DNA of 61,417 nt from Candidatus Bathyarchaeia archaeon (GCA_049515895.1 JBEKTQ010000024.1:1-61417), one strand, 5' to 3'; shown: positions 9,921-28,388, counted from the stretch's first letter. Made by a program: numbers and translations. Notes: generated from the letters alone by a model not told the origin.

Positions 9921-9990
9921 TATAGATTTTTTCAGATGTTTCTAGATTAATCTAGATCTTTATAGATGTTTTTAGATGTTTCTAGATTAC
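9921..9990. repeat. Seven degenerate 10-bp tandem repeats (consensus about TNTAGATGTT)
   Basis: tatagatttt ttcagatgtt tctagattaa tctagatctt tatagatgtt tttagatgtt tctagattac. Confidence 0.85.
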
Positions 9991-10124
9991 AGTTGCAACC
10001 AATCCAAGCCCCAAATCAAAAAAGCAACTCATTTCACAAAGAACAAATTTGCCGCTATTTCCATGCGCAAAAACTTCTCACAAACTACCTCAAACCAAGC
10101 ATTGAAAGGCTGTAAAGCCGAAAA

Positions 10125-11348: not shown

Positions 11349-11583
11349 GAGTAAAGCTCCTTTAGATAGTGTTGCATTTGATGCGCTATATTACTTACGC
11401 TTACAAAAGAGGGTCTTGCCGAGCAAAAAGGCACGGCATCATGATTCTAAGACACAAAGACGCATGGAAGATCACTTGTCTCCTCAAGCGCTAAAACGCA
11501 GTTGCAACCGTTATTGTAAGCACTCTTAGCGTTGAATACATTTTTAAGTTTAGGCTGTTGAGACTCCTTGGAAGTGGGACGCT

Positions 11584-12129
11584 TTGAAAATTGCCGAAGG
11601 AATCTATCAGGTAGAAGGAGCCAACTGCAACGTTTACCTTGTTGAAGATAATGATAAGCTAATTTTGATTGATACGGGCTTACCTAGAAGCAGCGCGAAA
11701 ATCATAAAGTACATCGAAAGCTTAGGACACAAGCGGAATGATTTGTCAACGATAGTAGTAACTCATTTTCACATCGACCACGTAGGAAGCCTCAAAAAAA
11801 TGAAGACAGAAACTGGAGCCAAAGTAGTAGTACACGAAGCCGACGCCGATTTTGTTTCTGGCAAGAAAGCACCGCCTAAGCCTAAGAATTTGATGTTTAA
11901 GGCGCTTAGCTCTTTTGTTAAGCCAGCTCCTGTGGAGCCGGAAATGGTTCTCAAAGACGGCGACAAAATCGGAAGATTAACCGTAATCCATACTCCCGGT
12001 CACACGGAAGGAAGCATTTCATTGCTGGACAATGAGAAAAAAGTAATGTTTGTCGGGGACGCGCTCATAGATTTGGCAGCGCGCGCTAATGAAGCTTTCA
12101 AAAGACTTACAGGTGATTCTGACGGTTAA
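11584..12129 (+). pseudogene. MBL-fold metallo-hydrolase, apparently truncated at the C-terminus
   Basis: LIDTG, THFHIDHVG, HTPGHT and GDAL are present, but the final His (GHG) motif is absent; sequence becomes atypical near the GCGCGCGC run at 12079. Confidence 0.65.
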
Positions 12130-12213
12130 GAGCTTAATCTGTTATATGGCAGGGAAGCATTCAAAAATGAGAAACATGGAGAAGGAGTAGTCGTCGCGAA
12201 GGGAGAACCGGGT

Positions 12214-13077
12214 ATGATAAGGATTGTTGTACGTAGGTTCGGCGATATTAAGGAGAGATTTGTTGAGAAAGTTTTGGAAATCTTGAATGACTGCTATAAC
12301 CGTCTTGGTACTCATCCTGTAGATATTGTGGAAGTCTACATTTTTGAAAAGTCTTCTTCTATGAATGCGTTTATGAACTACGAGAAGAGAAAACTCGGAA
12401 TTGAGACGTCGGCTTTTGAAGAATCATTCTTAGCTGTTCATGACGCTTGGCAGGGAACACCCAGAATAATGGTAGCTCATGATAAGATGATACACGTACC
12501 AAAGTTGGTTGGAATAGGTGCTTTGCGCCATGAAGCAGCTCACACAGCGCTTCACGGCTCTCTTGAATACTACTCATTTTCCACACCAATGTTCTTAATT
12601 GAACTTGAAAGGAACCGCGTTGTTTCGAGACAGGTGATAAGAGACCTTGTCTATTTGGCCTCTATAGCGGTAAAAGATTATGAAGTTACGCGCCTTCTCT
12701 ATGAAAAAGGGTACGCGATAGATCAGGTGGCCTACAATGAATACTACCTGAAGCCATCTGAAGAGGAGCTTGAAGCATGGAAACTATCTGAGAAAAATAA
12801 GACTGCTATACTTCTTTTTCTAGTCTCCGCTCTAAAGACAGCTTGTTGCGCCACTCCTTTACTAAAAGATGAAAGATACGGTGAAGAAATTCTTAAAACC
12901 ATAACTGGAAGTATGAATTTTTTACCTCAAGAATTGTCTGCTCGACTCTTGAAAACACTTGAAGCAGCATCCAAGTTTGGTAGGAACACCCACGAAAATG
13001 TAGATCGGTTTATGAAGGAGATTATTGACGAATTGGTTATCAAGGGAAAATGCCTTGACACTAAAGAGAATCGATAG
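12214..13077 (+). CDS. Hypothetical protein with zincin-like HExxH motif
   Basis: LRHEAAHTALHG; 287-aa ORF. Confidence 0.75.
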   Translation: MIRIVVRRFGDIKERFVEKVLEILNDCYNRLGTHPVDIVEVYIFEKSSSMNAFMNYEKRKLGIETSAFEESFLAVHDAWQGTPRIMVAHDKMIHVPKLVGIGALRHEAAHTALHGSLEYYSFSTPMFLIELERNRVVSRQVIRDLVYLASIAVKDYEVTRLLYEKGYAIDQVAYNEYYLKPSEEELEAWKLSEKNKTAILLFLVSALKTACCATPLLKDERYGEEILKTITGSMNFLPQELSARLLKTLEAASKFGRNTHENVDRFMKEIIDELVIKGKCLDTKENR

Positions 13078-13229
13078 CGCGCGCAAAGACGAAGCCCAAG
13101 ATATAACTGTATTCCGATGCGATTGGAGGCTGACAACGCGTGTATGAGCTTAATCGACAAGCATTCGAGTACAGGAGATTATAGTTACCGTTAAATGTTA
13201 AGCAATTTCACTATTAGTGGTGGTCACCG

Positions 13230-14039
13230 ATGCACTCTAAGAATGATATGGGTAAACAGTATCATATCTGCTGCGGTCAAGGGGATTTGGAGGAAACTCT
13301 GCTTGTACCAGGAGACCCAGATCGGATTCCGAAAATTGCCAGGTTCTGGGATTCCTCGACCGAAGTAGCGAGCAACCGCGAGTTTCGCAGCATCAGAGGC
13401 GTTTATCATGGTCTACGCATTTCGGCGCTTTCGAGTGGAATTGGCCCCGCTTGTATGTCCATAGTTGTCAATGAGGCTTCAAGGATAGGCGTGAAGAATT
13501 TTATTAGGGTGGGCAGCAGCGGCACCTTGCAACCAAACATAGCTTGTGGCGATGTAGTCATTTCTTCTGCAGCCGTACGCTTAGACGCTACAAGCGACTG
13601 CTACGTTGTTCCTGAGTATCCGGCTGTCGCTCACTATGAAGTGCTTTTAGCACTTGTCGAAGCGGCCGAGCAATTGGGCATTTGTAATTATCATGTGGGC
13701 GTTACCGCGACCACGACTGATTTCTATGCAGGGCAAAACCGCCCCATAAGAAAAGGAATTTCTATTGGTGAAAATCTGGTTCCTACTCTTCAGAAGGCGG
13801 GAGTTTTGAACGTTGAGATGGAGGCTGCTACACTGTTTACGTTGGCAAGTCTTTTTGGTCTGAGGGCAGGCGCTGTATTGGCGATCTACAATAGCCATGT
13901 TACAGGCGAGTTCAAGCCGCATGCTGGGGAAGAAAACGCTATCAAGATCGCCAACGAGGCTGCTCGAATATTGAGTGAGTGGGATGCTGCGAAAACGAAA
14001 ACTGGGAAACCCTACCTTTTCCCTTCGATGCTAAAATAA
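13230..14039 (+). CDS. udp: Uridine phosphorylase-family nucleoside phosphorylase
   Basis: LVPGDPDRI, NREF, GIGP, FIRVGSSG, FYAGQNR, NVEMEAA. Confidence 0.88.
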   Translation: MHSKNDMGKQYHICCGQGDLEETLLVPGDPDRIPKIARFWDSSTEVASNREFRSIRGVYHGLRISALSSGIGPACMSIVVNEASRIGVKNFIRVGSSGTLQPNIACGDVVISSAAVRLDATSDCYVVPEYPAVAHYEVLLALVEAAEQLGICNYHVGVTATTTDFYAGQNRPIRKGISIGENLVPTLQKAGVLNVEMEAATLFTLASLFGLRAGAVLAIYNSHVTGEFKPHAGEENAIKIANEAARILSEWDAAKTKTGKPYLFPSMLK

Positions 14040-14042
14040 CTG

Positions 14043-14063
14043 ATGGTAAGAAGTGCTTACCAT
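14043..14063. terminator. Inverted repeat between convergent genes
   Basis: ATGGTAAG-aagtg-CTTACCAT immediately after the udp stop. Confidence 0.4.
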
Positions 14064-14157
14064 TAAACCTTGGTTGATAAGCGCACGCCCGCTGTTAAAA
14101 AGGAAATAAATACTCTTTTTGACATTTTTCTGAACAGCCGTGGGCACTTGCAAACGG

Positions 14158-15168
14158 CTAACTCATGATTTGTTCGATTCTTTGAATGCGTTTCGCTACC
14201 GATGGGTGAGTCCCTGATTTTCTGTCAGCAGGTACAAGATTTAGCGCCACCAGTTTTTGAAGGGCGCTCACCATAGGTTTTCCCTCTCCAAGTGTCCTCA
14301 CAGCAATCTCATCTGCTTCAAGCTCGAATTTCCGTTGAAGACGCAAAACAAGTTGAGGACTCAAGAACAGCGCAACAAAACCTGCGAGAATAGATATCAG
14401 CGGCCAAATGGAAGTTTGACCTAAAGTAGCTGCTACAACGAAGAGATCTATCCCAATAATGGAAGTGAGCAAAAGAAGACCGCTAATTTTCATCACGTGC
14501 TTTCGTTTCGCATGAGCAAGTTCGTGTGCCATCACGGCGTTCACTTCTTCCTTGCTCATGTTCTCTAAGAGATAATTTGAAATGAAGACTGAAAACTTGC
14601 TCGGTCCCGCTTGGAAGGCGTTAGCTATCTTGAACTTCTTCCAGTCTATTGAGTAGAGGTCGACATGGGAAATACTCATTTTGTTTGCAAGTCCAGAAAA
14701 AGATGAAAGGATTGATTCATCGGTTATTGGAACCGCTCTTTGTCCAAGCCTTAAAGCAACTGGAACCCTCGCGAAGAACAAGAAAGTGATTAGAAGCAAA
14801 CCATCGGCGTAGATCGCCGTCAGAATGCCAAACTTGGGTAGCATGTATTTGAAACCGAGCAGAGCGATACCTGGGACAAGCGCCATCAAGTAAAACGGAA
14901 AATTTAGTACCAAATAGTCCTTTTGAGTTGCAGTTACATGCTTGTACCTTCGGTCAATTCTGCATTGGGCGAAGGACAAAAGGAACACTCCCACAGAAGC
15001 TATGAGTATGCTCAGCGAAATCGCAACGATGGGCGCTTGGAATAGCACGACCTCTGGAAACCAAGAAAAAATCAGGAACAAGCCCAAGAAGAAATTTACA
15101 AAACTAATCTTTTTAGTGTACTCTTTGGGCTGTGGCCGCGACTCCGCTGTTCTAACCTGACCATTCAT
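14158..15168 (-). CDS. M48 (HtpX/Ste24-like) membrane zinc metallopeptidase
   Basis: ANAF, AVMAHELAH, ELEADE, THPSVAKRI; multiple TM segments. Confidence 0.9.
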   Translation of the reverse strand: MNGQVRTAESRPQPKEYTKKISFVNFFLGLFLIFSWFPEVVLFQAPIVAISLSILIASVGVFLLSFAQCRIDRRYKHVTATQKDYLVLNFPFYLMALVPGIALLGFKYMLPKFGILTAIYADGLLLITFLFFARVPVALRLGQRAVPITDESILSSFSGLANKMSISHVDLYSIDWKKFKIANAFQAGPSKFSVFISNYLLENMSKEEVNAVMAHELAHAKRKHVMKISGLLLLTSIIGIDLFVVAATLGQTSIWPLISILAGFVALFLSPQLVLRLQRKFELEADEIAVRTLGEGKPMVSALQKLVALNLVPADRKSGTHPSVAKRIQRIEQIMS

Positions 15169-15304
15169 GACTTAAGAGATGTCCGCACTTCGTTATTGGG
15201 TTTTTCTCTATTATTGCACTCTCGCCCCTTGTCGCCTTCTAAGTCTGAAACCTCTACTTCAGCCAAATCGGATAATCAAGGCAGGAAGCAAATTGTGTGT
15301 CAAG

Positions 15305-16195
15305 CTAGCGCCATATGCGCCGAGTAAGGATTAAAACTGCGATAGCGATTGTGAAGGCTCCAAGTGCAATGAAGAACAGCCCTGGCAGGTACTCTAAGAG
15401 CGATGGGAGAGAGCCTCCAGCTGCCTGAGGCGACTGCGTTAGGGAGAATAAATCCAAGATTGCCGGAGCATTCGAGCCTGCCAGAAAGTAATATTGACCT
15501 TGAGCCAGGCTCAGAGAAACGCTTCCAGTCTGGAGATCGTATTGACTCAGCCAAGACGGCGGCGTCCCAGAGAAATTCTCCAGTGTTGACGGTACCTGGC
15601 CGTCTGTAGCGTGTTGAAGAAGCAAAGCATCATGTTGCGTTGAATTCATGACATAGATGTATACGGGACTTGAGGCGCTCCAAGCGATGTTTAACGGTGA
15701 GGCACCTGACGGGACATTCCAGGATGTGAGCAATACCGTTGTGTTTTTTGGTATAGTCTGATTTAATATGGATACGTGCATGCTGTTGACTGTTGTCATC
15801 GTGGCAGGAAAAGATGCCAAAAGAAAAAGACCGGCGGAGATTAGAAGAATACCCGCGAGTATCAGCACTACAGCCACCGCAATTTTCAATGCCGAGTGCT
15901 GCTTCTTCTCCGCCTGTATTCTCTCGGGAAAGGTCCGGAGCAAATTGACGGCTAGCTGTCCTTTCTCGGTGAGGCGATACTTTCCTTGGTCATCCTTCGA
16001 TACAAGACCCTTCAGAGCCTTCAGATGGTAGTTGAGTCTGCCCGTGTTTGTTATTTGTAAGAGAGCCATTATTTCCGTGTAGCCGATTGCTTCTTTCTCT
16101 GCTAGCAACTCCAGTATGCTTCTCCTTGTAGTATCGCTGAGAATCTTGTGCAGGGATGACCAGTCCACTTCTTCCATGATTTCCTTTTTGTTCAT
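15305..16195 (-). CDS. Membrane-anchored ArsR-like wHTH transcription factor with extracellular domain
   Basis: LSDTTRRSILELL, TGRLNYHLKAL, YRLTEKG, then TM, about 140-aa S/T-rich domain, TM. Confidence 0.85.
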   Translation of the reverse strand: MNKKEIMEEVDWSSLHKILSDTTRRSILELLAEKEAIGYTEIMALLQITNTGRLNYHLKALKGLVSKDDQGKYRLTEKGQLAVNLLRTFPERIQAEKKQHSALKIAVAVVLILAGILLISAGLFLLASFPATMTTVNSMHVSILNQTIPKNTTVLLTSWNVPSGASPLNIAWSASSPVYIYVMNSTQHDALLLQHATDGQVPSTLENFSGTPPSWLSQYDLQTGSVSLSLAQGQYYFLAGSNAPAILDLFSLTQSPQAAGGSLPSLLEYLPGLFFIALGAFTIAIAVLILTRRIWR

Positions 16196-16214
16196 CAGTT
16201 GAATTTTAATGTTT

Positions 16215-16245
16215 TTGATAAGAGAGGTTATCTCCTACTTATCAA
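16215..16245. promoter_or_regulatory. Inverted repeat upstream of the membrane transcription factor (possible operator)
   Basis: TTGATAAG...CTTATCAA with an inner GAGA/TCTC pair. Confidence 0.4.
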
Positions 16246-16360
16246 GCGCGCGCGCCGCGTTTCTCGTTGGGTCGATGTACTTCTATTCTTCGTAAGCAGG
16301 TCCACATTCCGCAGGGAAGAGATACTGCAAAATGGAAGTAAATGCTAATCTGAAAGCTGA

Positions 16361-16891
16361 GCGCGCGCGACCATAGGATACGAGCCTATCTACGGGAATT
16401 TTAGTTTCCCTCAAGTTTCTCAGCACACGCTGTCTGGCAGGGACATCGTGACTGCTACCAAAGTTTCCGACGTTACGTTGCAAGTAACACCAGTTAATGA
16501 AATGGCATATATTTCTATAGCATCATACAACTCGTCAAGCACGAACATAGCCTCATTAACCAATGCGGAAATTACCGGACCCACAGACTTCAACGTTCCA
16601 GCAGGAACAACAAACGCAGTAGTGTAGGCCGCAGAAAGCACATACAGCGAGACCTCCTCTTCCGTAGTAATGATGACGCCTACGCCTACATCACCACCGT
16701 CTCCTTCACCGGTGTCGCCGTCTCCTTCGCTCAGTCCAACGTCATTTCAAAATCCAGCTGCTTCCCCTTCCCCGTCCCCCACAGTTCCCGAATTTCCTAA
16801 CCCAATGCTAGCAGTTACGTTAGCTATCTCTATGATCATGGTCTGGTCTTCAGTTATCATTGCACAGAAGAGAATGACCTCAAAACTTTAG
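16361..16891 (+). pseudogene. Remnant of a PEF-CTERM surface protein (no N-terminus, internal TAG)
   Basis: Frame open from GCG CGC GCG at 16361, in-frame TAG at 16625, then P/S/T linker, TVPEF, TM and basic tail. Confidence 0.7.
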
Positions 16892-17014
16892 CTTTAGATC
16901 TTACTTATTTCTTCTTTACAGAACTGCTTTGAAGCGTAACATAGTTTTTCTAAATGTAAGAGTTCTGAAAGTAAGTGTGTGTGTGTGGGTATTAAATTTT
17001 AGTCCAACTAGCAC

Positions 17015-17251
17015 TCAGAAAACGATTTTTCTAAGTCTGTCGTAGGATGAGAGGTAATCTCGTCCTTTCGTTGTGATGAGATATTTGCCGTTGTTTTGCA
17101 TAATCATGCTTCGCTGCGTGAGAATTGTCAAATAGGATTCTGCTTGCACATCGTTCAAACCTAACCTGTTCATAATTCTTCCCTTATCTTTTGATGTTTC
17201 GCAGAAGCGGATAATATGAGACACAATTCCTAATCTACCACTAAAAACCAT
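17015..17251 (-). CDS. Small winged-helix protein (archaeal HTH_45/ArnR1-like)
   Basis: RLGIVSHII...RIM..LGLN...YL..L...KYLITTKGRDYL. Confidence 0.75.
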   Translation of the reverse strand: MVFSGRLGIVSHIIRFCETSKDKGRIMNRLGLNDVQAESYLTILTQRSMIMQNNGKYLITTKGRDYLSSYDRLRKIVF

Positions 17252-17322
17252 TTAGTTCACAAGGTATTGTCGGTTGGGTAACAATTAAGCGTGTGTGACT
17301 GTTGAACAACTGTAACAAGTGA

Positions 17323-17345
17323 CCGTATACTCGATTCCGACTATA
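17323..17345. repeat. 23-bp quasi-palindromic site, copy 1
   Basis: CCGTATACTCGATTCCGACTATA; 21/23 identical to 19312..19334. Confidence 0.75.
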
Positions 17346-17615
17346 CCCATACCCTATTATTGGCTTGTTTTTCCATTACTAAGCGCGCAGTTAACCCGAA
17401 GATGCAGAACTGTCACTATCCAGAATACGAGTGCTTCATAGCTAAAAAAAGCAATGGGTATAAGCGTAAGAGCAGTGAGTGTAAACATGAGAAAAGAGGT
17501 AGATGAAAAAGCAACAGAGAAAAAACTGAATAACGTTTTATGTCCAAGGTGTCCTTATTGTGGTAGCACTCGCCTTGAAGAAGTAATAATATGAAAAACA
17601 TTGGAAAATTTGAAC

Positions 17616-17807
17616 ATGTCCGAATATGATAGAAGCCCACGTAGTAAATGGGGAGGAAATCAACCTTACGAGTGCCTTCGGTGCGGAGCAACCACGACGG
17701 GCGAAAACATAGAGGAAAGAAACGGCGAAATCAAATGTATCGTATGCGGATACAGAGTTTTAAAAAAAACTAAACCGCCAGTAGTAAAGAAAGTTCCCGC
17801 AACATGA
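17616..17807 (+). CDS. rpoP: RNA polymerase subunit P (Rpo12)-like zinc ribbon
   Basis: YECLRCG...IKCIVCGYRVLKKTKPPVVKKV. Confidence 0.85.
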   Translation: MSEYDRSPRSKWGGNQPYECLRCGATTTGENIEERNGEIKCIVCGYRVLKKTKPPVVKKVPAT

Positions 17808-18021
17808 CATAAGAACTCTGCATCAAAATTGTTTCTTTTTTAAGCCAATATAGCTCCCGCCACTTCTATCTACAGTCTAAATATCGAGACTAAAATTATG
17901 TTTACTTTAACAGTATCCTGAAAAGCTTGATGATTTGTTACCCGTAGTATTTTGCGTGCGCGCTTATGAGGGAAGATTTTAATGCACACTTAACTAAACG
18001 AGTATATAGGGTTGGGTTGAT

Positions 18022-18258
18022 ATGCCAGCTGCCTTTGTTTTAATGAATACCAAGATAGGTTCGGAATCTGACGTGCTGAAAGAACTGAAAAAGGTCGAGG
18101 GTGTTGAGGAAGTTCAGCCGTTTATGGAGTCTACGGCATAGTTGCAAGAGTCAAAGCAGAAACTACGGATAAATTAAAAGAAATAGTAGCGTGGCGGGTT
18201 CGACGACTAGATAATGTTACGTTCAACGCTAACAATGATTATCGTTGGAGAAAAATAA
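18022..18258 (+). pseudogene. Lrp/AsnC ligand-binding domain gene with two frameshifts
   Basis: MPAAFVLMNTKIGSESDVLKELKKVEGVEE / VYGVYGIVARVKAETTDKLKEIVAWRVRRLDNV / RSTLTMIIVGEK* with two frame changes. Confidence 0.85.
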
Positions 18259-18583
18259 CATCATTTAAACTCCCTTTCTTTTATAATAGCTCAAAGAATT
18301 GGCGACTACTGCTAATTTACTTCCAGCCTAGCTGAGATTAGCCGACATAGAGAAAGTTAATGGCTTGAGTATTTTTAAGAGGGGAAATGACTATGGGCGA
18401 ATGCCACACAACCCCTAACCATCCTATAATCAAACGATACGGCATAAAAGATTTTTCTATAATTCGGTACGAACTTCATAAGGGTAGAATAGTTCTTTTA
18501 TTACTCGTAGTATTTAGCCAAGTTTTCATAAAGACAAGTCTTAAATCTACAAGTGACAGAATAAAATTATTCAGGGTTTTACA

Positions 18584-18934
18584 TTGGACAAACAAGAAGT
18601 TGATATTCACGCTTTAGAAAAGACTTACGTGCTTGTTGTAAGAGTGGTTAATTTTCAAGGAAATAATCCCCTCGAGAATGTTAACGTTAAAGTTTTCAGA
18701 TTGGAAACGGAACCAATAACGCTCAAACAATGGGCTGAAAATCTCAAAAATGGAACTCCATTTAACAGGTTGATGCTCTCGATGAATACCGATAATGATG
18801 GGAACGTAACTGCTGAGCTTACAAAGGGCGTCTATGAAGCTGAAGTCGAAAAATACGGTTTAGATAAGGTTTGTGAATTAACGCAAAATGACAGGGTTCT
18901 CTTTATTGAACCGAAAAAGCATTGGTGGCAATAG
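18584..18934 (+). CDS. Hypothetical protein, carboxypeptidase-regulatory/prealbumin-like fold
   Basis: VVNFQGNNPLENVNVKV...TDNDGNV...LTKGVYEAEVEKYG. Confidence 0.6.
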   Translation: MDKQEVDIHALEKTYVLVVRVVNFQGNNPLENVNVKVFRLETEPITLKQWAENLKNGTPFNRLMLSMNTDNDGNVTAELTKGVYEAEVEKYGLDKVCELTQNDRVLFIEPKKHWWQ

Positions 18935-19044
18935 TCTTAAATCTGCATAGCGTAGAATTAGCCTGAAAATGGTTGAAAAACATACTTTATAATAAATATA
19001 AAATCGAAATCCTTACTGGTCTGATTAGGGCTGGAGGTGAAAAA

Positions 19045-19275
19045 ATGAGTGAAAATAACGACGTCTTAAACCAATTAAAATCTAAGAACATACGTATAGA
19101 AGCTTACAAGCAAATAATCAGGAGAAGAATTGAAGCAAAATTTGGTTATGAATTGCCCCTTTCACAAGAAGCATATTTGTTTGAAGACAAAACTAAAATA
19201 ATTAACGTGGTTAATGTTCTTTTTGAGGCTTTAGTCGAAGCTGTAGAGGATACAAATCTAACCAACAAGGACTAA
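19045..19275 (+). CDS. Small hypothetical protein
   Basis: Strong SD GGAGGTGA before ATG 19045. Confidence 0.65.
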   Translation: MSENNDVLNQLKSKNIRIEAYKQIIRRRIEAKFGYELPLSQEAYLFEDKTKIINVVNVLFEALVEAVEDTNLTNKD

Positions 19276-19311
19276 GTATGAAATTTTGACCAGCAATTAT
19301 GCAACTTGAGC

Positions 19312-19334
19312 CCGTATACTCGTTTTCGACTATA
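19312..19334. repeat. 23-bp quasi-palindromic site, copy 2
   Basis: CCGTATACTCGTTTTCGACTATA. Confidence 0.75.
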
Positions 19335-19344
19335 ATTTATTGCT

Positions 19345-19437
19345 TGAGGGGTATCTTTTCTCATATTTTTTACCCCTCATAGTATTATTTTTGTTCAATT
19401 TTGCAGGGGGTAATTTTTTTTGTACTTTTTACCCCCT
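19345..19437. promoter_or_regulatory. Two tandem GGGGTA-N17-TACCCC inverted repeats
   Basis: TGAGGGGTA-17-TACCCCTCA (19345-19379) and AGGGGGTA-17-TACCCCCT (19405-19437). Confidence 0.6.
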
Positions 19438-19698
19438 ATATACCGTTGATTAACTATTCTTATTTTTCAGATTACCTACCCGTGATTATCTTTTACAATG
19501 GTAACATGGGTAACTTAGTCTTGGTTCAACGTTGGTTGGTTGGATTAAAATTTATCCACAAAAATTATTTGTTTATAAAATTTAGTTTAAATCTTCATAA
19601 AAGAAAAAGTGAACGTGATTCACCTTAGCATGTTAACGCTCGTCGATTAAGTAAATTCTAAATAAAACAGCATTATATACGTAAGAAAGGGATGCAAA

Positions 19699-19953
19699 AT
19701 GGATTATGTAGCAATAATCGGCTTTATGGCTGCTGCATTTACAGTAATTGCGTTTCTTCCTCAATTAACGAAGGTTTGGAAAACGAAATCAACTAAAGAC
19801 ATTTCCTTGGGAATGTTCTCAATTTTTTGCGGTGGTACGTTTTTATGGCTCGTTTATGGAATGTTAACGCAAGACTCGCCTGTTGCGATCGCAAATTTCT
19901 TAATTTTCATTCAGGCATTTATTATTCTGATATTTAAGTTGAAGTATAAATGA
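19699..19953 (+). CDS. SemiSWEET (PQ-loop) sugar transporter
   Basis: AFLPQ, KSTKDIS, FLWLVYG, PVAIAN; three TM segments. Confidence 0.92.
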   Translation: MDYVAIIGFMAAAFTVIAFLPQLTKVWKTKSTKDISLGMFSIFCGGTFLWLVYGMLTQDSPVAIANFLIFIQAFIILIFKLKYK

Positions 19954-20020
19954 AATGTCTTGCGTAAAGAAATCATGCCTGCAAAAAGCATAGAATCTTC
20001 AAAAATCAATTACTTAATGT

Positions 20021-21136
20021 CTATATTATTGCGTTGGTTGTCTTCTTATCGAATACATGTATCTTGCTAGCGTCCATTTCCATGATTACTCCTTGACCAG
20101 CTTTCGCCTTTGTTTCTTTAACTGTTGCCACTATCGGAATCTGCCCAAGGTTTAGGTGTAGAAGCATGTAGGGTCCTACAGGTTCAATAAGGTTTATTTT
20201 CATTCTAAAGGCATTTTCCTGCGTTGTCCCTTCAGCGGATTCACTTTCATGTAAGTCTTCTGGTCTGATGCCCATTATGGTCTCTGTGCCAATGTAGCTT
20301 CTTAGCTCAGAAGCCATTTTAGTCGGCAAAGATATTTTGAATTCTTTTGCATCTAAGTACAGTCCTTTGTTTTCCTCAATCAAAGTGCAGTTGATGAAGT
20401 TCATTTCTGGAGATCCGATAAAACCGGCAACGAATAAGTTTGAAGGGTGATTATACAGTTCGTCGGGAGTGCCTATTTGTTCGACTTCGCCGTCTTTCTG
20501 AACCATGATTCTGTCTGCCATGGTCATGGCTTCTACTTGGTCGTGAGTGACATATATGGTGGTCACCCCTGTATCCAGCTGCAATTTCTTTAGCTCGATC
20601 CTCGTTTGAACCCTAAGCTTTGCGTCGAGATTTGCGAGAGGTTCGTCCATCAGAAAGACTTTGGGCCTTCTGACCATCGCTCTCCCCAATGCTACCCTCT
20701 GTCTCTGACCTCCGCTGAGTTGCCTCGGCTTCCTGTTTAAAAGGTGAGAAATACCCAGAAGCTCCGCGGTTTTCTTGACCCTTGCCTCAATTTCATCCTT
20801 TTTGACCTTGCTTATGGTGAGCGGAAAGGCAATGTTATCAAACACGGTCATGTGAGGGTAAATAGCATAGTCTTGAAAAACCATTGCAATTCCTCTCTCT
20901 TGAGGGGCTTTGTGTATGCCCTTTTCTGCAGAGCTTACCAGCTCGTCGCCTATCCAGATTTCTCCTGCATCTATTTTGATTAAGCCTGCGATAGCGAAAA
21001 GGGTTGTTGTCTTTCCACATCCGGAGGGCCCCAAAAACACAAAGAATTCCTTATCTTTAATTTGCAGGTTTAAGTCTTTTACAGCTATGGTGTTTTTATA
21101 TTTTTTGGTTAAATTCTTCGCTGTTATGTTAACCAT
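20021..21136 (-). CDS. Sugar ABC transporter ATP-binding protein (MalK-like)
   Basis: GPSGCGKTT, LSGGQRQRVA, DEPL, THDQVEAM, GIRPE. Confidence 0.95.
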   Translation of the reverse strand: MVNITAKNLTKKYKNTIAVKDLNLQIKDKEFFVFLGPSGCGKTTTLFAIAGLIKIDAGEIWIGDELVSSAEKGIHKAPQERGIAMVFQDYAIYPHMTVFDNIAFPLTISKVKKDEIEARVKKTAELLGISHLLNRKPRQLSGGQRQRVALGRAMVRRPKVFLMDEPLANLDAKLRVQTRIELKKLQLDTGVTTIYVTHDQVEAMTMADRIMVQKDGEVEQIGTPDELYNHPSNLFVAGFIGSPEMNFINCTLIEENKGLYLDAKEFKISLPTKMASELRSYIGTETIMGIRPEDLHESESAEGTTQENAFRMKINLIEPVGPYMLLHLNLGQIPIVATVKETKAKAGQGVIMEMDASKIHVFDKKTTNAII

Positions 21137-21150
21137 TCGCCATTACCAAA

Positions 21151-21990
21151 TTATCCTTTAATAGCTCCAGCCATGTATCCACGTATAAGATATTTGCCCA
21201 ATACGAGATAAATGATTAAGACAGGAAGCGCGTACCATAATGCTCCTGCCATTTGAACATTATAATTGAATGCGGTAGTTCCCTTCAAATTTGCCAGTGC
21301 GACCGAAGCTGGCATAGCCTCTGATCCCCTGGCTAGCGTGACACCAAAGAGGAAGTCGTTCCATATGCTAGTGAACTGAAAAACTGCGGCGACAACAAAC
21401 GGAAGTAAAGAAAGTGGTAACACAATGCGTCGATATATTGTCCATGTTCCTGCCCCGTCTACTTTGGCCGCCATTATGAGGCTATCAGGGAGTAACCCAT
21501 AGAAGTTTCTGAAAAGAAGAGTCGTGATGGTTATGCCGTATGCTGTATGGGTTAGGATTAGCCCTCCCACAGTGTTGTATAACCCTAACTTTGATATCGT
21601 CAGAACTAGAGGAACAAGCACTGCTTGGTAGGGAATAAATATCCCGATGGCAAACAGCAAAAACACGGTGTTGGACCCACGGAACTTAATCTTGGTCAGT
21701 ATGTAACCGTTGATCGAACCCAAAAGACAAGAAAAAATCATGGCAACGACCGTGAACGTGAGACTGTTGAGCAGAGGTCTTTCCATTATATTGAAAGCTG
21801 TTATCAACGGATCAATGGTTGGTGACGAGGGCAGTTCCACAGGGACGGTGTAAATAATATCGTGAATGCTTTTGAAAGAAGTCGTGAAATCGGTCCATAA
21901 AGGAAGCAGAAACAAAAACACGAAAACTACTAGCACAAAGTAAAGGACTATTCGTCTAGGTTTGGGGAATCTCAGTCCTTTTCCCTCCAT
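21151..21990 (-). CDS. Carbohydrate ABC transporter permease (MalG-like)
   Basis: EAA-like AAKVDGAG, WNDFLF. Confidence 0.93.
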   Translation of the reverse strand: MEGKGLRFPKPRRIVLYFVLVVFVFLFLLPLWTDFTTSFKSIHDIIYTVPVELPSSPTIDPLITAFNIMERPLLNSLTFTVVAMIFSCLLGSINGYILTKIKFRGSNTVFLLFAIGIFIPYQAVLVPLVLTISKLGLYNTVGGLILTHTAYGITITTLLFRNFYGLLPDSLIMAAKVDGAGTWTIYRRIVLPLSLLPFVVAAVFQFTSIWNDFLFGVTLARGSEAMPASVALANLKGTTAFNYNVQMAGALWYALPVLIIYLVLGKYLIRGYMAGAIKG

Positions 21991-22871
21991 ATGAAGGAGT
22001 ACAGATACGGCACAACTATGGCAAGCACAATTATGAAAAGTATTGTTGCAATTGCAGCTCCGTAGGCGAAGTTTGTTCTTAGAAAAGTCTCGATGAACAT
22101 CTTTAAGGGCACCACGTAAGTGGCGGTAGCCGCAGGTCCTCCACCCGTTAATACATAAATAAAATCGAACACTTTGAGAGCAAATATCATGAGAACAACA
22201 AATGCGCTTAGAGTAGAATTTTTTAATTGGGGTATTACAACGCGTCTATACAAGGTAAAACCAGCTGCTCCATCCACTTCCGCTGCCATTATTTGAGACT
22301 CTGGAATGGATTTTATCCCCGCTAAGAAAATTAACATAGTGTATCCCGAGAATTGCCATATAATGGCCAATATGACACAGTATAACGCAATATTTGGGTC
22401 GGTAGTCCATCCAGACTGCAGAAATCCGAGTCCGATTGCCTTCAACAACGTGTTTATGACACCCACATCTGGGTTGTACATCCACGCCCACAAAGTTGCT
22501 GTAATCACAAACGAGAGGGCGAAAGGCAGCAGGTATATACTCCTAAAGACGCCCTCACCTCTCACCTTTGAATCCAAAAGTATGGCCAAAAGGATACCTA
22601 GGCCAAGACTGCTGGGTACAAAAATCACTATTAAAATAATATTGTTTGTTAGAGCTGTTATAAATTCTGGGTCGTGGAACATGGTCACGTATTGACCGAA
22701 ACCGGCAAAACTGTAGCTCGGAGCAAGACCTTTCCAGTTTGAGACTGAAACCACTACATTCCATCCGATAAGGATGTAGACGAAATAGCCAACTAGTACG
22801 ACGGATGGAAGAATAAAGAGTAAGTTAACCATCGTTTCACGCGAAAACGCCCTTCTAAAGGGAAGTCTCAT
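21972..22871 (-). CDS. Carbohydrate ABC transporter permease (MalF-like)
   Basis: AAEVDGA, FAYGAAIA; start placed at ATG 22871. Confidence 0.92.
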   Translation of the reverse strand: MRLPFRRAFSRETMVNLLFILPSVVLVGYFVYILIGWNVVVSVSNWKGLAPSYSFAGFGQYVTMFHDPEFITALTNNIILIVIFVPSSLGLGILLAILLDSKVRGEGVFRSIYLLPFALSFVITATLWAWMYNPDVGVINTLLKAIGLGFLQSGWTTDPNIALYCVILAIIWQFSGYTMLIFLAGIKSIPESQIMAAEVDGAAGFTLYRRVVIPQLKNSTLSAFVVLMIFALKVFDFIYVLTGGGPAATATYVVPLKMFIETFLRTNFAYGAAIATILFIIVLAIVVPYLYSFIWREKD

Positions 22872-23187
22872 TTTTTGGTCAGCCCAAAGGAAATTTTGAT
22901 CTAGCTGTTTAGGAGATAACTCAAAGCTGTTAATCCCCTTTCTATCTTCACCAGACTCCAATCAGATAGAAGATTAAGAAGATAAAAAAGCCTTTCGACA
23001 AACCCCTCTTAGAAGGCTTATGTACGCGAATTCAATTAGACCAAAGCTCATTTAGGAAAATACTTTCTTTTTGCAGAAACATTCAGGATACGATTTCAAA
23101 TGTAATGAAACGCGTTTTACTCGATTTTAGAAAAAAAAAGGGGGTATTTGGTGTTTTCTTGTTGTTTAGCCTCGCGATTCATCTGCT

Positions 23188-24504
23188 TTACAATGACCAT
23201 ACTTTGGTGTAGTCGGCATGATGAGTACTTGCTGAGGAAGCTAATGCTGATGCTGCGGCATTAACGTCTTTGTTTGCTACGAAGCTTGATACTATGTTGA
23301 CCCAGTCGGTTGTGAAGGATTCAGGTGCGCCACTTCCGTGAGTTACGCTCGGGTACAAGTGTGCAGCCGCCTTAAAGTCGGCTTGGGCGGCTTTTTGATA
23401 CGCTCCGTATTTGCTTATGTCTGAGTCACTGCGTGGAGAAATGGAGCCCTTCAGCGGGTTGAACGCGTCTTGTCCATCTTTGGAACCGACAACCTTTAGC
23501 CAGTCTAAGGACTGAGTGGGATGCGCGACACCTTTTGGATGTTCGAAGCAGTCTACCACAAGTCCATACAGCCCTGCGGTTCCAGGCGTTGGAACTGTTC
23601 CGTAGTCGACGCCGTACGTCTTGCTTGCGAGTGTGAATTCTCCATTTGCCCAGTCTCCCATTACGTTGAATACGGCAGCTCCCGTAATTACCCTTGATGT
23701 TGCTTGATCCCAAGTTAGAGCCGAATGGTCATCATTAACATAGGTTAGATATTTTGCGAAAGTAGTTAACGCATCCTTCATCATAGAGTTGTTTGGATCC
23801 GTTATTTTCCCATTTATCCAATCCTGATAGAAGCTTATCCCTTCGCCCGCTATCATCGTCTCTAGAACATGTGCAGCCGCCCACGGGCCTGAGTCCCCTA
23901 GCGATATTGGGTGAGTTATTCCCGCGCTCACTAGTTTGTCGCATGCCGCAAAGAAAGCTGTCCAAGTCGTTAAGGTCGACGGATCTATTCCATTTGTTTT
24001 GAGAATTGGTAAGTTATACCAGAGCACATTTTGCCTGTGAATGTCCAGTGGAACTGCGTAGTAGTCGTTGCCGAACTTCACCATGTCAAGTATTACTTTT
24101 GGAAAGACGTTTTCCCATCCTTGCTGCGTGTAGAGGCTAGTAATAGGCTCCAAGTAGCCTCCGTCATAGTACGGTCTGCCCTCATATCCAGCGTGCAGCT
24201 GGAAGGAATCCGGAGCTTCTCCAGCCAGCACCAAAGGCTTGATAACTGCTTTGAACACGTAGCCTGCTCCTCCGGCCACCGGGCTTTGTATCACCGCTGT
24301 ATTGGGGTATTGTGTGTTGTAGTATGCCACAAGCGCGTTTATAGCTGCAGCTTCCCCGCCTGAGGTCCACCAATGATAAATCTCCAGCACATTCGCAGAA
24401 CTAGTTGGGGGTCGCGTAACAATGTATACTATTCCGCCTACAAGAAGCGCAGTTATAATCACTGCAGTGGCAACGAGGTATATTGCTTTAACCAACGAAA
24501 CCAC
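23188..24504 (-). CDS. Glucose-type sugar ABC substrate-binding protein with N-terminal TM anchor
   Basis: LEIYHWWTSGGEAAA, PDSFQLHAG, HRQNVLWYN, MGDWA, FNPLKGSI, HGSG. Confidence 0.92.
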   Translation of the reverse strand: MVSLVKAIYLVATAVIITALLVGGIVYIVTRPPTSSANVLEIYHWWTSGGEAAAINALVAYYNTQYPNTAVIQSPVAGGAGYVFKAVIKPLVLAGEAPDSFQLHAGYEGRPYYDGGYLEPITSLYTQQGWENVFPKVILDMVKFGNDYYAVPLDIHRQNVLWYNLPILKTNGIDPSTLTTWTAFFAACDKLVSAGITHPISLGDSGPWAAAHVLETMIAGEGISFYQDWINGKITDPNNSMMKDALTTFAKYLTYVNDDHSALTWDQATSRVITGAAVFNVMGDWANGEFTLASKTYGVDYGTVPTPGTAGLYGLVVDCFEHPKGVAHPTQSLDWLKVVGSKDGQDAFNPLKGSISPRSDSDISKYGAYQKAAQADFKAAAHLYPSVTHGSGAPESFTTDWVNIVSSFVANKDVNAAASALASSASTHHADYTKVWSL

Positions 24505-24730
24505 CTGCTTCTCTCTTATTTTGAGAAACTATAAAAGCTTTGCGTCTAGCATATGGGACTGAATTTTGATTTCCAATTTAAAATAAAAAAAATAACGCAA
24601 TCAACATCAAGTGCACGCCAGCTAGTAAATCAATCTTTTTGTGTCTATTTTTGGCTATCTGGCAAGAAGAAAGAATGATTGATCTTGCTTTTCTCAAGCA
24701 AGCAAGGCACCGTGGTAACTGAGGAGGAGG

Positions 24731-24758
24731 GGATTAAATTTTAATCTTTCTCTCTCTC
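24731..24758 (+). repeat. Left arm of 28-bp inverted repeat
   Basis: Core palindrome GATTAAA-T-TTTAATC followed by (TC)n. Confidence 0.9.
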
Positions 24759-24902
24759 TAAACCACAATAATCAAACTCCCAACTCAAACTTCCTTACTC
24801 TTAATATTTTGAATTTTGTTAAGGCTTCTGCTCTCTTAAACGGCAACATCACCATAGAAAAACACAAAAAAGCTGAAAACTTTAATACAGGTCAAATCCT
24901 AA

Positions 24903-25379
24903 ATGAATGGAGTTGTTATGTCAGGAATTGACATGGGACTTTTCTTAACTGCTATCGGTCTTATTCCACTCTATGTTGGTTTGGTCCCTCTCTATTTAGA
25001 CCTATTATCGAGAAGAAAAGTTGATTTTTACCTTTTGCGATACCAATACTTTAACGATGCCGATGCTGAGAAGTTCTTTGATAGAATAAGAACCTATCAC
25101 CCGAACAAAGCTATAGAGAGATGTTCAGTCTTCTATAATGATACCAGGCTAGTTTGGGATTATGAACCTTTACCCAATGACCAAAAGTTTATTGAAAAGA
25201 TGACTTTGGCAGATGTACGACTCCCGTCGAACGTTCTTCGTAAGGTTAAACCAAAAGATGGAATAGTTGTTGTTAAAGATGGAAAGAGAATAATTCGGAA
25301 AATGAATTTTTTGGATATACCCTTCGTTAATGAGCAAATTGCCCAAGAACAGATGAAAAGATATAGAGAGAAAGATTAG
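24903..25379 (+). CDS. Hypothetical protein with N-terminal TM segment
   Basis: 158-aa ORF; stop TAG lies within the palindrome TAGCGCGCGCGCTA. Confidence 0.7.
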   Translation: MNGVVMSGIDMGLFLTAIGLIPLYVGLVPLYLDLLSRRKVDFYLLRYQYFNDADAEKFFDRIRTYHPNKAIERCSVFYNDTRLVWDYEPLPNDQKFIEKMTLADVRLPSNVLRKVKPKDGIVVVKDGKRIIRKMNFLDIPFVNEQIAQEQMKRYREKD

Positions 25380-25715
25380 CGCGCGCGCTATCGTTCCATA
25401 TATCGAATAAGCTCGAAAACAGTGAATCAACGTTATCTTGGAAAATAATCGTTTTTAAGACTTTAAACTGAATTTATAAACCAGTATTTTTTCCTACTAA
25501 ACGTGAATGTAAACCTAACATCCCGCGCTTTGCTCCTTTTGCCAAATAAAGCTTGATTATTAGCTATTTTAGCAAATTGGGGCTGAAAGATCGACAAAGA
25601 AAGTCGCAAGATGCCTCGTTTCCTGAATAAGCGCCTGTCTAACGAGTTTACCGAAACGGTGCTTTCTGGAATGGGCACAAGCGCGCGCCCTTCTCTGCTT
25701 CACAGTATTTTCAGC

Positions 25716-27710
25716 TTAGACTGGAGGCGACGATATAGTCGTAGAAGAGACATGGCGACCACGCGTTCCAAGGGTAACAGCCACGAGGACGACAACCACG
25801 ATAACAACCACTACAACCGCTGCAATGCCAATGTACATCCATGGAATTAAAATATTTACAGACTGAATAGGGTGCGGTGTAGGCGACGGTGTGGGCAACG
25901 GTGTAGGCGATGGTGTAGGCGATGGCGAAGGAGTAGGAGTTGGGGAAGGCGTCGGAGTTGGAGTTGGAGGTGTGTTGACACTTACGGACGTGGCGGTGGA
26001 GTTCACTGATTCTCCCGCGCTGTCTGTGACTTGGACCATGAAGTTCCAGCTGCCCACAGTCGCGTAGGTCGCGGCGTTAAAGTAGTAGCTTGAGTAGGTC
26101 GCGCCGTAAATCATCGAGTAAAAAGAGGCGCCTGCCGTTTCCTCGAACCACTGGTACGTGTAGGGGGAACTCCCTGTCGTTACGGCAGATGCAGACAAAG
26201 CGCTGCTCTCGCCCTGACTAACCGCGCTGGGTGAAGCTGAAGCGGTCGGAGCGACCAAAGGAGGGTTAACAGTCACCGACGCTGCAGTAGAATTCACGGA
26301 TGCGCCCGTATTGTCGGTGACCTGAAGAATGAAACTCCAAGTGCCCAGAGCGGTAGAAGCCGTAGTCACGAAAGAATTACTCGACGCAGCCCCGCCAAGC
26401 AAAACATAACTACCGCCAGGAGCCTTACTGAACCACTCATACGTGTAGGGCGAAGGACCGCTTATCCCAGACGAAGACAAAGTGATAGTCTGGCCTTGAT
26501 CAACCGCACTGGGCGAAGCAGAAGCTGTCGGAGGAGCCAAAGGAGAGTAACCAAAAGCATAGACTTTGCCGTCTGTTGAGCCTGCGTAGACCACACCGTT
26601 GGCAATAGCAGGAGACGACCACACCCAGCCGGCTGTTTTATAGCTCCATATTGCAGCGCCTGTTGCCCCGTTCAAAGCGTAAACATTGTTATCTAATGAA
26701 CCGATATATACCACGCCGCCAGCGACAGCAGGAGAACCACTAATATACCCGTTGGTTTTATAACTCCATATTTGCGCGCCTGTTGTAGCATTAAAAGCAT
26801 ACACAGTACCGACATTCCCAATGCCATTATATGAGCCTATGTAAACCATACCGTTGGCAACAGCAGGAGCCACAGACTGGATTGAGAAGCCTGCTACTGT
26901 GCTCCAGATGTACGCGCCCGTCGCAACGTTTAAAGCATACACATTGCCGTTGTAAAAAGCTACGTAGACTATGCCGTTGGCAACAGAAGGAGAACCCGCA
27001 CCCCCAGTAACACCTGCGTAAGACCAGATATATGCCCCTGTTATAGCGTTCAAAGCATACACTTTGTCCGAGCTTATGTAGACCACTCCATTGGCAACAG
27101 CAGGAGAGGAGGAGACAGTGCCACCTGTTTTGTAGCTCCATATTTCGCTGCCAGTGGTAGCGTTCAGAGCATACATGTAATCGTCATTTGAGCCTATGTA
27201 GACTATGCCGTTGGCGACAGCAGGAGAAGACTGCACAGAGCCGGTTGTCGTGTAGCTCCAGATGTGTGCACCTGTTGCAGCATTTACAGCGTACACGTTG
27301 TCATCATTTGAACCTACGTAGACTATGCCGTTGGCGACAGCAGGAGAGGAAAAGGCGCCTCCTCCGGGTGTTGTGTAGGTATATATGTTAGTTCCAGTTG
27401 AAGCATTAAGAGCGTACAGGGCCTGCGTTGTGCTTACGTAGACTATGCCATTGGCAACAGCAGGAGACGTCCCGCCACTTATGGTTGCCCCTGTGTTCCA
27501 GCTCCATTTGATTTGGTTTGTTGTTGGACCAGTGGATGTGGAATAGCCTGTGTGGCTTAAATCACCCTGATACATTGGCCATGCGTTGGGGTTTCCGTTT
27601 GAATCGCTGCTTTGCGCGCGCGCCCTGTTTAAGTTTCCGAGGAAAACGGAAGCCATCATGCTACTTAGGAGAATTAAGACAAGAAAAGTGAATAATAGCC
27701 TCTTATTCAT
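25716..27710 (-). CDS. PQQ-like beta-propeller surface protein with Ig/PKD-like repeats, PT linker and TM anchor
   Basis: Signal peptide; WPMYQGDLSHTG; about eight SSPAVANGIVY..YALNA.TG..IWSY repeats; two YTYxWF repeats. Confidence 0.92.
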   Translation of the reverse strand: MNKRLLFTFLVLILLSSMMASVFLGNLNRARAQSSDSNGNPNAWPMYQGDLSHTGYSTSTGPTTNQIKWSWNTGATISGGTSPAVANGIVYVSTTQALYALNASTGTNIYTYTTPGGGAFSSPAVANGIVYVGSNDDNVYAVNAATGAHIWSYTTTGSVQSSPAVANGIVYIGSNDDYMYALNATTGSEIWSYKTGGTVSSSPAVANGVVYISSDKVYALNAITGAYIWSYAGVTGGAGSPSVANGIVYVAFYNGNVYALNVATGAYIWSTVAGFSIQSVAPAVANGMVYIGSYNGIGNVGTVYAFNATTGAQIWSYKTNGYISGSPAVAGGVVYIGSLDNNVYALNGATGAAIWSYKTAGWVWSSPAIANGVVYAGSTDGKVYAFGYSPLAPPTASASPSAVDQGQTITLSSSGISGPSPYTYEWFSKAPGGSYVLLGGAASSNSFVTTASTALGTWSFILQVTDNTGASVNSTAASVTVNPPLVAPTASASPSAVSQGESSALSASAVTTGSSPYTYQWFEETAGASFYSMIYGATYSSYYFNAATYATVGSWNFMVQVTDSAGESVNSTATSVSVNTPPTPTPTPSPTPTPSPSPTPSPTPLPTPSPTPHPIQSVNILIPWMYIGIAAVVVVVIVVVVLVAVTLGTRGRHVSSTTISSPPV

Positions 27711-27952
27711 AAAACGCTTCACTTCTCCCTTATTGAGCAGATGTGCTCTAAACATATATTACTTTTTGGGTATGTGGGGACTAAGTTTTAATCTGTTCTG
27801 GCTTTTCTTTTCTTGTTTTGTGGTGTTGTGCGGTGTCGTGCCGTGCGGTGTCGTGCGGCGGTGGCGGTGGTGGGTATGTTGAAGGGGTATATGAGTATAG
27901 GAGTAGCAGTTAGTTAGTTAGTTAACGAGTTAGCGGTTGGAAATAAATTTCT

Positions 27953-27980
27953 GAGAGAGAGAAAGATTAAAATTTAATCC
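27953..27980 (-). repeat. Right arm of 28-bp inverted repeat
   Basis: GAGAGAGAGAAAGATTAAAATTTAATCC. Confidence 0.9.
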
Positions 27981-28388
27981 ACACCCCATTGACGAAGTGA
28001 CACTTGCCTGACAAAACTATTACTTTTATTCTTAACTTGCAGCTTAACTTTACATACACAACAACTTAACACTTAACGACGTTTGTAAAATAAGGTGAAA
28101 AAGGCGTGGAGTAAAATCTTAGTATAAAATAAAATACAAGTTTGAACTTACATATACTGTACCATAATTTCGGTCAGGCTGACTTTTTCTTTCGGCTAAA
28201 TGCCGCGTGGATTATAAAAAGTTTGCTTGCGAGTCTGATGTATTTCTCAATTATTCATTAAGCCTTTTGCAAATGCTTTGATATATGCCATCGAGGCGCA
28301 ACTAATATTGCGAGAAGTTAAGATTCAAAAGGTTGTTTTTTGCAAAATGAAAGCTATATCAGTAAACTTGCAAAAGCAAAGATATGCT

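Follow-up and report, generated by a model that had tools for sequence, protein, structure and literature searches.

Why do short runs of alternating G and C stand at the joints of accessory DNA in an archaeal genome? The question is raised by a stretch of 61,417 nucleotides (nt) from Candidatus Bathyarchaeia archaeon (GCA_049515895.1 JBEKTQ010000024.1:1-61417), here called the window, which is contig C24 of a genome (G000) of 3.18 Mb in 53 contigs. An earlier note, made from the sequence alone, had listed seven such runs and had read them as short palindromic sites at which cassettes are joined. When a run is defined as a maximal alternating G/C stretch of at least 8 nt, a scan of the full window returns the same seven (12079-12086, 13077-13084, 16246-16255, 16361-16369, 25379-25388, 25681-25688 and 27614-27623) and no other. 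These runs are real and far too frequent for chance, and the interpretation first given to them is partly supported. They most likely trace to jumping genes with GCGCGC ends rather than to a new recombination signal. More specifically, and with confidence that stops somewhat short of even, we propose that they are remnants of IS5/IS1182-like insertion sequences (IS) and of MITEs (miniature transposable elements with inverted repeats), left behind at the loss of such elements and at rearrangements associated with them.

The motif is not peculiar to the window. G000 contains 103 runs, where about 15-18 are expected per strand. Counted on both strands, GCGCGCGC is present 224 times, against 30-35 expected from Markov models of orders 3-4, and (GC)5 is present 30 times, against 1.2-1.6; the genome-wide count that the earlier note had proposed thus reveals a clear enrichment. 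For one strand of the window the Markov expectation for GCGCGCGC is about 0.3, in agreement with the previous estimate of well under one chance copy. Most runs are short, with 55 of 8 nt, 33 of 9 nt, 13 of 10 nt, and one each of 11 and 12 nt, and 62 of the 69 runs of even length begin with G and end with C. According to a rough in-house gene caller (3222 genes, 81% coding), 73 of the 103 runs (71%) are intergenic, compared with 17.7% of random positions. Order-3 simulations, with intergenic and coding DNA treated apart, show that the excess is intergenic and limited to the G...C phase:

8-mers G...C, intergenic: 33 seen, 3.7 expected
8-mers C...G, intergenic: 5 seen, 3.2 expected
9-mers, intergenic: 27 seen, 2.3 expected
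10-mers G...C, intergenic: 7 seen, 0.5 expected
8-mers G...C, coding: 15 seen, 6.8 expected

The runs are also clustered. A neighbour lies within 5 kb for 60 of the 103, versus 31 +/- 5.8 under random intergenic placement, and 24 lie within 2 kb of a contig end, versus 7.4 +/- 2.7 under random placement. A is preferred immediately before a run in G000 and T immediately after it; comparison of the flanks shows nothing beyond this adjacent base, and the idea that the runs belong to a longer motif or a repeat element was rejected.

Within the genome, the runs are sited at breaks in homology. Homology to a paralog (within 600 nt) stops at the edge of 16 of the 103 runs, as opposed to 5.3 +/- 1.8 (maximum 10) in 30 control sets, and it spans a run in only one case, as opposed to 13.7 +/- 2.8 (minimum 8). 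The partner copies have no run at the breakpoint. At C11:14732, for example, a 98-nt paralog that is 100% identical (C11:16449-16546) carries on with the ancestral sequence and contains no run. In the window, the runs are confined to accessory DNA and several lie exactly at junctions between unrelated modules, bearing out the view that their positions are non-random. The distance from the GTPase/metallo-beta-lactamase-fold (MBL) genes to the AsnC-like/ParB-like genes is 2-5 kb in five relatives of the genus and 16.3 kb in G000. The features of this region are as follows (strand is given where one applies):

12079-28363: G000-specific accessory island with all seven runs inside, defined by synteny with five genus relatives
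12079-12086: (GC)4 run at the island's left edge, joining a truncated MBL gene to a 1-kb module; homology break
12087-13076, plus strand: 990-nt module consisting of a gene for 287 amino acids (aa) and 127 nt upstream, with a run at each end; homologues in 26 metagenome loci
13077-13084: (GC)4 run overlapping a TAG stop; polymorphic, being a MITE end in a sister strain (comparison with locus L022)
16246-16255: (GC)5 run abutting the operator end of an ArsR-like/DUF7347 module (15305-16245); homology break
16361-16369: 9-nt run at which a headless surface-protein tail begins, as seen in the stop-to-stop frame
17383-17388: GCGCGC hexamer at a module border; X1 contigs are alike to the right of 17388 and different to the left
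17958-17963: GCGCGC hexamer, again at a module border; window 17962-17973 is where many genus matches to the following module start
25379-25388: (GC)5 run that overlaps the TAG stop of a gene for 158 aa and forms the left end of a 310-nt unit; crossed by contigs of X1 and X2
25681-25688: (GC)4 run at the right end of this 310-nt unit, 27 nt past the stop of a PQQ-repeat gene for 679 aa; from flank and contigs
27614-27623: (GC)5 run within this gene for 679 aa; it codes for RARA, which falls between signal peptide and mature protein, and contigs of all four sequencing runs cross it

At the left edge of the island, the relatives encode an MBL protein of about 220 aa. The G000 copy diverges from it after ...GDAL, and DNA homology stops at ...GGCA/GCGCGCGC; the run thus stands at the truncation point, near which the earlier note had placed it. 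The adjoining 287-aa product has no Pfam match. DNA matches to its module are limited to about 12088-13089 and occur in several different contexts. The closest homologues from outside the strain, L023 and L029, align from 12088, directly past the 12079 run; their upstream DNA is unrelated to that of the window, is mutually homologous, and contains no run. Among other lineages, L025 shows a (GC)5 that is not shared with the window, at another breakpoint in this region, and in L036 and L037 eight runs of at least 8 nt fall within 2.4 kb. Where the window has the 13077 run, homologues of the module have a native G(T/C)GCGCG-like stretch. The two reported overlaps with TAG stops are present, since the open reading frames (ORFs) 12214-13077 and 24903-25379 each end on the first G of a run, which is the G of the stop codon.

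The ArsR-like module aligns with four homologues (three in relatives, plus a paralog on C3) through ...CTTATCAA at 16245. Past this point each homologue continues differently and none has a GC run, the (GC)5 being present in the window only. A piece of unique DNA, 105 nt long, separates this run from the one at 16361, where, as had been claimed, a headless surface-protein remnant starts: the stop-to-stop frame 16361-16627 opens exactly at the run and, after a frame change, leads into a PT-rich linker and membrane anchor. The intergenic hexamers reported at 17383 and 17958 are also found, together with five further GCGCGC hexamers in the window (10861, 26774, 34622, 39081 and 41199), and metagenome depth rises about five-fold at 17383-17388. 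Farther along, the run at 25681 is, as described, just past a gene end, and the one at 27614 encodes the RARA of NRARAQ in frame; residues 1-47 of this 679-aa protein have no paralog in G000, while the part downstream has many. Logan contigs identical to the window, assembled from sequencing runs of four different studies (one of which may be the source sample), bridge the GC runs: X2 and X3 contigs at 12079, X1 and X2 contigs at 16246, and a single X2 contig across both 16246 and 16361. In X4, some bins have a depth of 0.

Taken over the genome, the runs do mark many seams of accessory DNA, and to this extent the earlier interpretation is supported. They were not, however, pre-existing crossover sites in the parents. 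Parental or paralogous copies lack the run (the MBL orthologues, L023/L029, the ArsR-like homologues, and C11:16449-16546), which excludes an exchange of cassettes between pre-existing sites of the HIP1 or integron kind. Likewise, the expectation that synteny breakpoints would fall on the motif holds for several runs, but many borders have none, including the right edge of the island near 28364 and the borders at 17506, 17583, 18933, 19290 and 25498. The pieces of an island on contig C10 match dispersed sites in five relatives, as in a mosaic; with identities of 75-85%, some of its borders, but not all, can be placed near runs. Outside the window's island, a CBS-domain gene (9420-9896) lies in an insertion (9195-10129) whose neighbours are 85 nt apart in G060, with no GC run at either border.

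The earlier note had stated that no recombinase is encoded in the window, and this remains so: the window has no DDE_Tnp_1 match. The genome as a whole is different, since it encodes IS5/IS1182-like DDE transposases in elements that end in GCGCGC. There are 12 matches to PF01609 (DDE_Tnp_1) in G000, at about 8 loci, all IS5/IS1182-like and several at contig ends; no TnpB-type or RVT_1 match above cut-off was found in this genome. Two IS copies are complete (C10:118397-119505 and C12:83353-84563). Both are GCGCGC-ended and both have DDE_Tnp_1 and DUF772 domains, the best NCBIfam models being IS1182/IS5, below their curated cut-offs. Two MITEs are present, one of 165 nt with GCGCGC at both ends (C26:45870-46034) and another at C28:17452-17933. 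The C26 MITE has TA on both sides and stands in place of about 330 nt of a gene of which G052 has an intact copy. Clustering of the flanks of all runs of at least 6 nt yields six inverted-repeat families that start right after GCGCGC and account for much of the hexamer excess. Nine further IS copies were collected from G016, G060 and G038; seven of the nine have GCGCGC at both ends, and one (L063) has it at one end. No target duplication is evident at 10 IS copies from these three genomes and G000. One of them, L065 (G016:C4:198770-200130), has the ends ACGCGC...GCGCGT, a symmetric change at both outermost letters.

The most direct tie between a run and an element comes from L022, a metagenome locus that is 99.6% identical to the window over 6214-13082, the 12079 junction included. 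At the 13077 run L022 departs from the window and continues with GATAGCTCGCATGCTTGTTCC..., which is the left inverted repeat of the family of the C26 MITE; two elements lie end to end there. Over the genome, 20 of the 103 runs are within 3 kb of an inverted-repeat tip or a transposase, versus 4.6 +/- 2.1 for intergenic sites chosen at random. In a set of 19 genomes of the genus, which are kin and not independent, (GC)4 counts and counts of the tip pattern have a Spearman correlation of 0.74.

How could a transposon leave only a GC run? In the proposed sequence of events, IS and MITEs whose inverted repeats are tipped with GCGCGC would insert into accessory DNA, where deletions next to them and joins of unrelated DNA would accompany them. 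The body of the element would then be lost, either by deletion or when the palindromic GCGCGC tips of one element, or of two, are joined out of register. What stays would be a short G...C-phased run with a core of 8 nt, made longer where flanking bases happen to match or where one more GC unit is present, and this run would mark the former position of a transposon, often a module junction. We infer from several lines of evidence that the orphan runs, those without an element, derive from GCGCGC-tipped elements in some such manner. The phase of the runs matches that of the element tips, and only this phase is in excess. All the DDE_Tnp_1 matches point to one kind of IS, and complete copies, MITEs and flank families all begin after GCGCGC. 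In L022 a MITE end falls exactly at the window's 13077 run. Elements are found beside deletions and without matching flanks, which fits with runs at breaks that lack target duplications. The runs are near elements and near contig ends, several of which are IS copies, and (GC)4 counts rise with tip-pattern counts across the genus. Finally, run lengths fit a fixed 8-nt core with chance extension and never exceed two full tips (12 nt).

Other observations weigh against this origin. No flanking direct repeats are seen at the 103 runs (for k=2, 7 versus 9.2 expected; for k=3, 0 versus 2.2), and TA is present on both sides of only 2 of the 103. Consequently, simple insertion of a MITE with TA duplication, followed by excision, is excluded. 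About 25-35 of the hexamer and heptamer runs are the tip of a shared terminal inverted repeat, while for runs of at least 8 nt each of three inverted-repeat-like patterns matches just 2-3 of the 206 flanks (4 flanks in total). Thus the orphan runs are not element ends now and are at most remnants. About 100 of them stand against 23 recognizable tips, and no graded series of decaying elements was seen. G016, with 26 tips, has more of these than G000, yet only 17 GCGCGCGC matches. Conversely, G024, which belongs to another family, has 53 GCGCGCGC matches without any match to the tip pattern, and a search there with one transposase returned no homologue. Twenty sampled G024 runs (L078-L097) are stand-alone, G...C-phased and AT-flanked, similar in look to those of G000. 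In addition, the co-location of runs and IS could merely reflect their common residence in islands, and G000 yielded no other IS family with which to compare.

The G024 runs are among the points that favour an unlikely alternative, in which broken or incoming DNA ends gain a short self-complementary GC tail or linker during illegitimate end joining, so that the run is made at the junction, independently of any transposon. In its favour, runs stand exactly at breaks whose parents have none, as for the MBL gene, for the left end of the adjoining module as compared with L023/L029, for the ArsR-like module and at C11:14732. The independent (GC)5 at another breakpoint in L025, the lack of target duplication at runs, and the pieces of 105-800 nt strung between runs fit as well, and G000 has the genes: a complete operon for Ku, the LigD primase-polymerase and a ligase-phosphoesterase. 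However, Ku was detected in 15 of the 18 genus genomes sampled, whatever their run count and most with few runs (and in 0 of 12 genomes of the order's other genera), and it was not found in G024 with its 53 copies; as a lineage-specific cause it was rejected. The match to IS and MITE tips and the MITE at 13077 would both have to be coincidences. To our knowledge, no known end-joining system adds a fixed, phased sequence, and G000 has no reverse transcriptase match by which a template could be copied, which also removes reverse-transcriptase-templated repeats as a candidate. In a broader form of this idea, doubtful though somewhat less so, GCGCGCGC would be the product or substrate of a dedicated DNA-joining process in some uncultured archaea of peat and sediment. 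Either a self-complementary GC tail or linker would be added to arbitrary ends that then anneal, or a (GC)4-specific enzyme would cut and join. Captured and duplicated fragments would be stitched into accessory islands in this way, and IS ends would merely match or exploit the process. This would explain the run-less parents, the lack of target duplications, the constancy of phase and length, and the runs of genomes such as G024, where no such IS was found. A third, also improbable, possibility is that GCGCGCGC is recognized by the IS5-like transposase, or by another recombinase or nuclease, as a preferred target or pseudo-end that suffers recurrent breaks and insertions. This is in essence the proposal of the earlier note, now with an enzyme that might carry it out. 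The motif is indeed a phase-specific palindrome; the 13077 boundary has been used differently in two strains with a common 12079 junction; ends of other repeat families abut runs (C21:43199 and C19:58260); and L022 has its two elements end to end. The symmetric ends of L065 are what one would see if a palindromic target supplied the outermost letters, and the bases next to the runs depend on the lineage, A...T in G000 and the reverse in G024 (of the 20 sampled, T precedes in 13 and A follows in 11). A pre-existing target is nevertheless argued against by the element-free comparison sites in G060 (for the C10 IS) and G052 (for the C26 MITE), which contain no GC run, though both sites are also rearranged. 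Junction parents have no runs either, paralogous modules do not carry the run along (the single spanned run being the measure of this), and a target model is silent on the origin of about 90 extra runs.

Two more explanations dispense with joining altogether. A functional intergenic motif under selection, such as a binding site for a regulator or an insulator that forms Z-DNA, would suit the intergenic location of 71% of the runs and their palindromic form, and the runs are long enough to form Z-DNA. It is nonetheless very improbable. The runs lie at anything from 0 to more than 1000 nt from gene starts and ends, and each of the four types of gene orientation is represented in roughly proportional numbers, which rules out placement at promoters or terminators; Z-DNA formation would treat (GC)4 and (CG)4 alike, yet only (GC)4 is in excess; and the runs are not conserved in relatives of the genus and are located at homology breaks. 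Chance, base composition, ordinary microsatellite slippage or faulty assembly can hardly account for the runs. Some slippage of run length does occur, since one run differs between the metagenome contigs L036 (12 nt, 1703-1714) and L037 (14 nt, 2297-2310). However, the excess over the Markov expectation is 6-7 fold, and 9-14 fold in intergenic DNA, whereas (AT)4, (AC)4 and (AG)4 are near expectation, at 1.5-2 fold. Lengths stop sharply after 10 nt, without the long tail of a dinucleotide microsatellite, and the presence of identical junctions in contigs of four studies means that the runs are not chimeras of assembly.

If the runs are transposon remnants, what known process do they resemble? 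In work on Tn10/IS10 in the early 1980s, remnants of "nearly precise excision" and solo transposon ends were reportedly described. There, as reported, recombination of short repeats contained in the inverted ends removes the body of the element and leaves a small palindromic remnant at the old site, and such remnants mark IS-driven deletions and rearrangements, all of which is similar to what is proposed here. By contrast, the present remnant would be only 8-10 nt of pure (GC)n, no target duplication survives, and the remnants would outnumber the recognizable elements. The excision footprints of Tc1/mariner elements are similar in that a few end letters stay at the donor site and that end joining, which is present in the genus, is needed. 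Canonical footprints of this kind are bordered on each side by the duplicated target and interrupt DNA that is otherwise continuous, as it is in the unoccupied allele. The GC runs have neither the duplicated target nor continuous flanks, as orthologous or parental DNA diverges at the run; moreover, the transposases of G000 are IS5/IS1182-like, not IS630/mariner-like.

The analogy to HIP1 (GCGATCGC) drawn in the earlier note does not hold up beyond the sharing of an over-represented, lineage-specific 8-nt GC-rich palindrome. HIP1 occurs about once per kb in cyanobacteria, within genes too. The 103 runs in 3.18 Mb are not highly iterated throughout the genome; they are 71% intergenic, clustered in islands and at homology breaks, and no cognate methylase was found for them among the C5 methylases searched. 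Integron attC cassettes, in which accessory genes are strung together with a short palindrome at the borders and native gene copies have no palindrome, are alike in these respects. Unlike attC sites, the runs have no structure of 55-140 nt and no conserved flanks, and the inverted repeats around 25379 and 25681 are weak. Genes around the runs are in both orientations, modules do not carry the run along, and no integron integrase with attI adjoins them, nor is there a recombinase among the island ORFs scanned. Filler DNA of the Ku-LigD kind is comparable in that extra letters stand at joins of unrelated ends in a genome with a Ku-LigD operon. Known fillers are short and variable, or copied from nearby DNA, whereas here one phased sequence recurs about 100 times. 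In literature listings and the opening lines of abstracts, nothing appears on GC-run junctions or on IS ends of this type in these archaea.

The distinction matters. If the runs are scars of elements, they are a cheap, readable marker of past IS and MITE activity and would show the seams at which the accessory islands of an uncultured lineage of archaea were put together, and the assembly of an island could be traced piece by piece from metagenomes. Otherwise, some 100 identical inserts, phased and 8 nt long, found where unrelated DNA is joined, would point to an undescribed form of DNA end joining. Under either reading, alleles with the element, without it or with a run in strain-resolved peat metagenomes provide a culture-free handle.

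A methyltransferase or recombinase co-occurring with the motif had been suggested as a further check. For the recombinase half of this suggestion, transposases with matching ends exist elsewhere in the genome. For the other half, no GCGC or GCGCGC methyltransferase was found in a search of G000 for C5 methylases (N4/N6 methylases lay outside the search). The PF00145 matches are only in a system of the Alw26I/Eco31I/Esp3I type at C14 ~61.8-67.8 kb (L058:5842-11848), which consists of a 1002-aa fused adenine and cytosine-5 methylase and a 520-aa endonuclease. An origin of (GC)5 by BssHII-like restriction or fill-in, for which a circularly permuted C5 methylase had come into question, was rejected on account of this type of methylase (a fused m6A and m5C enzyme with its endonuclease) and because the direct parents have no GCGCGC at the breakpoints. 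A 432-aa tyrosine-recombinase-like gene adjoins the C14 restriction system. The end-joining operon is on C15, at ~71.6-74.9 kb (L057:5602-8926), and encodes a LigD-type primase-polymerase of 349 aa, Ku of 283 aa, and a 476-aa fusion of an ATP-dependent ligase with a 3'-phosphoesterase. Among archaea, complete Ku-LigD operons of this type are rare.

Several smaller observations concern the island itself. Positions 16196-16245 form a palindromic operator-like element, TTGATAAG-N16-CTTATCAA, upstream of the gene for the ArsR-like/DUF7347 membrane protein, and this element is conserved in three relatives and one paralog. The 310-nt unit at 25379-25688 was considered as a MITE and is kept as a hint only, since its arms are weakly complementary beyond the GC runs. 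The inner flank of the 25379 run, TATCGTTCC...ATAT, has a weak likeness to a transposon inverted repeat, and that of the 25681 run, read inward, is TTGTGCCC..., with the TTGT(T/C)(C/G)C core of the IS inverted repeats. Positions 25498-25680 are multi-copy in metagenomes, and the match of an X4 variant contig to the window ends at 25685. The region 16979-19290 is a patchwork of modules of 200-450 nt, with ORFs for small winged-helix, zinc-ribbon and unknown proteins. Its modules are 85-95% identical to many scattered places in the genus, compared with 70-84% for the core GTPase gene, and its metagenome depth is 3-8 times that of neighbouring DNA. L046, a metagenome contig of the same strain, is 99.98-100% identical to the window over 12824-17509 and 17581-18825 and has an extra ~155 and ~90 nt, relative to window 17506-17582, at two points without GC runs.

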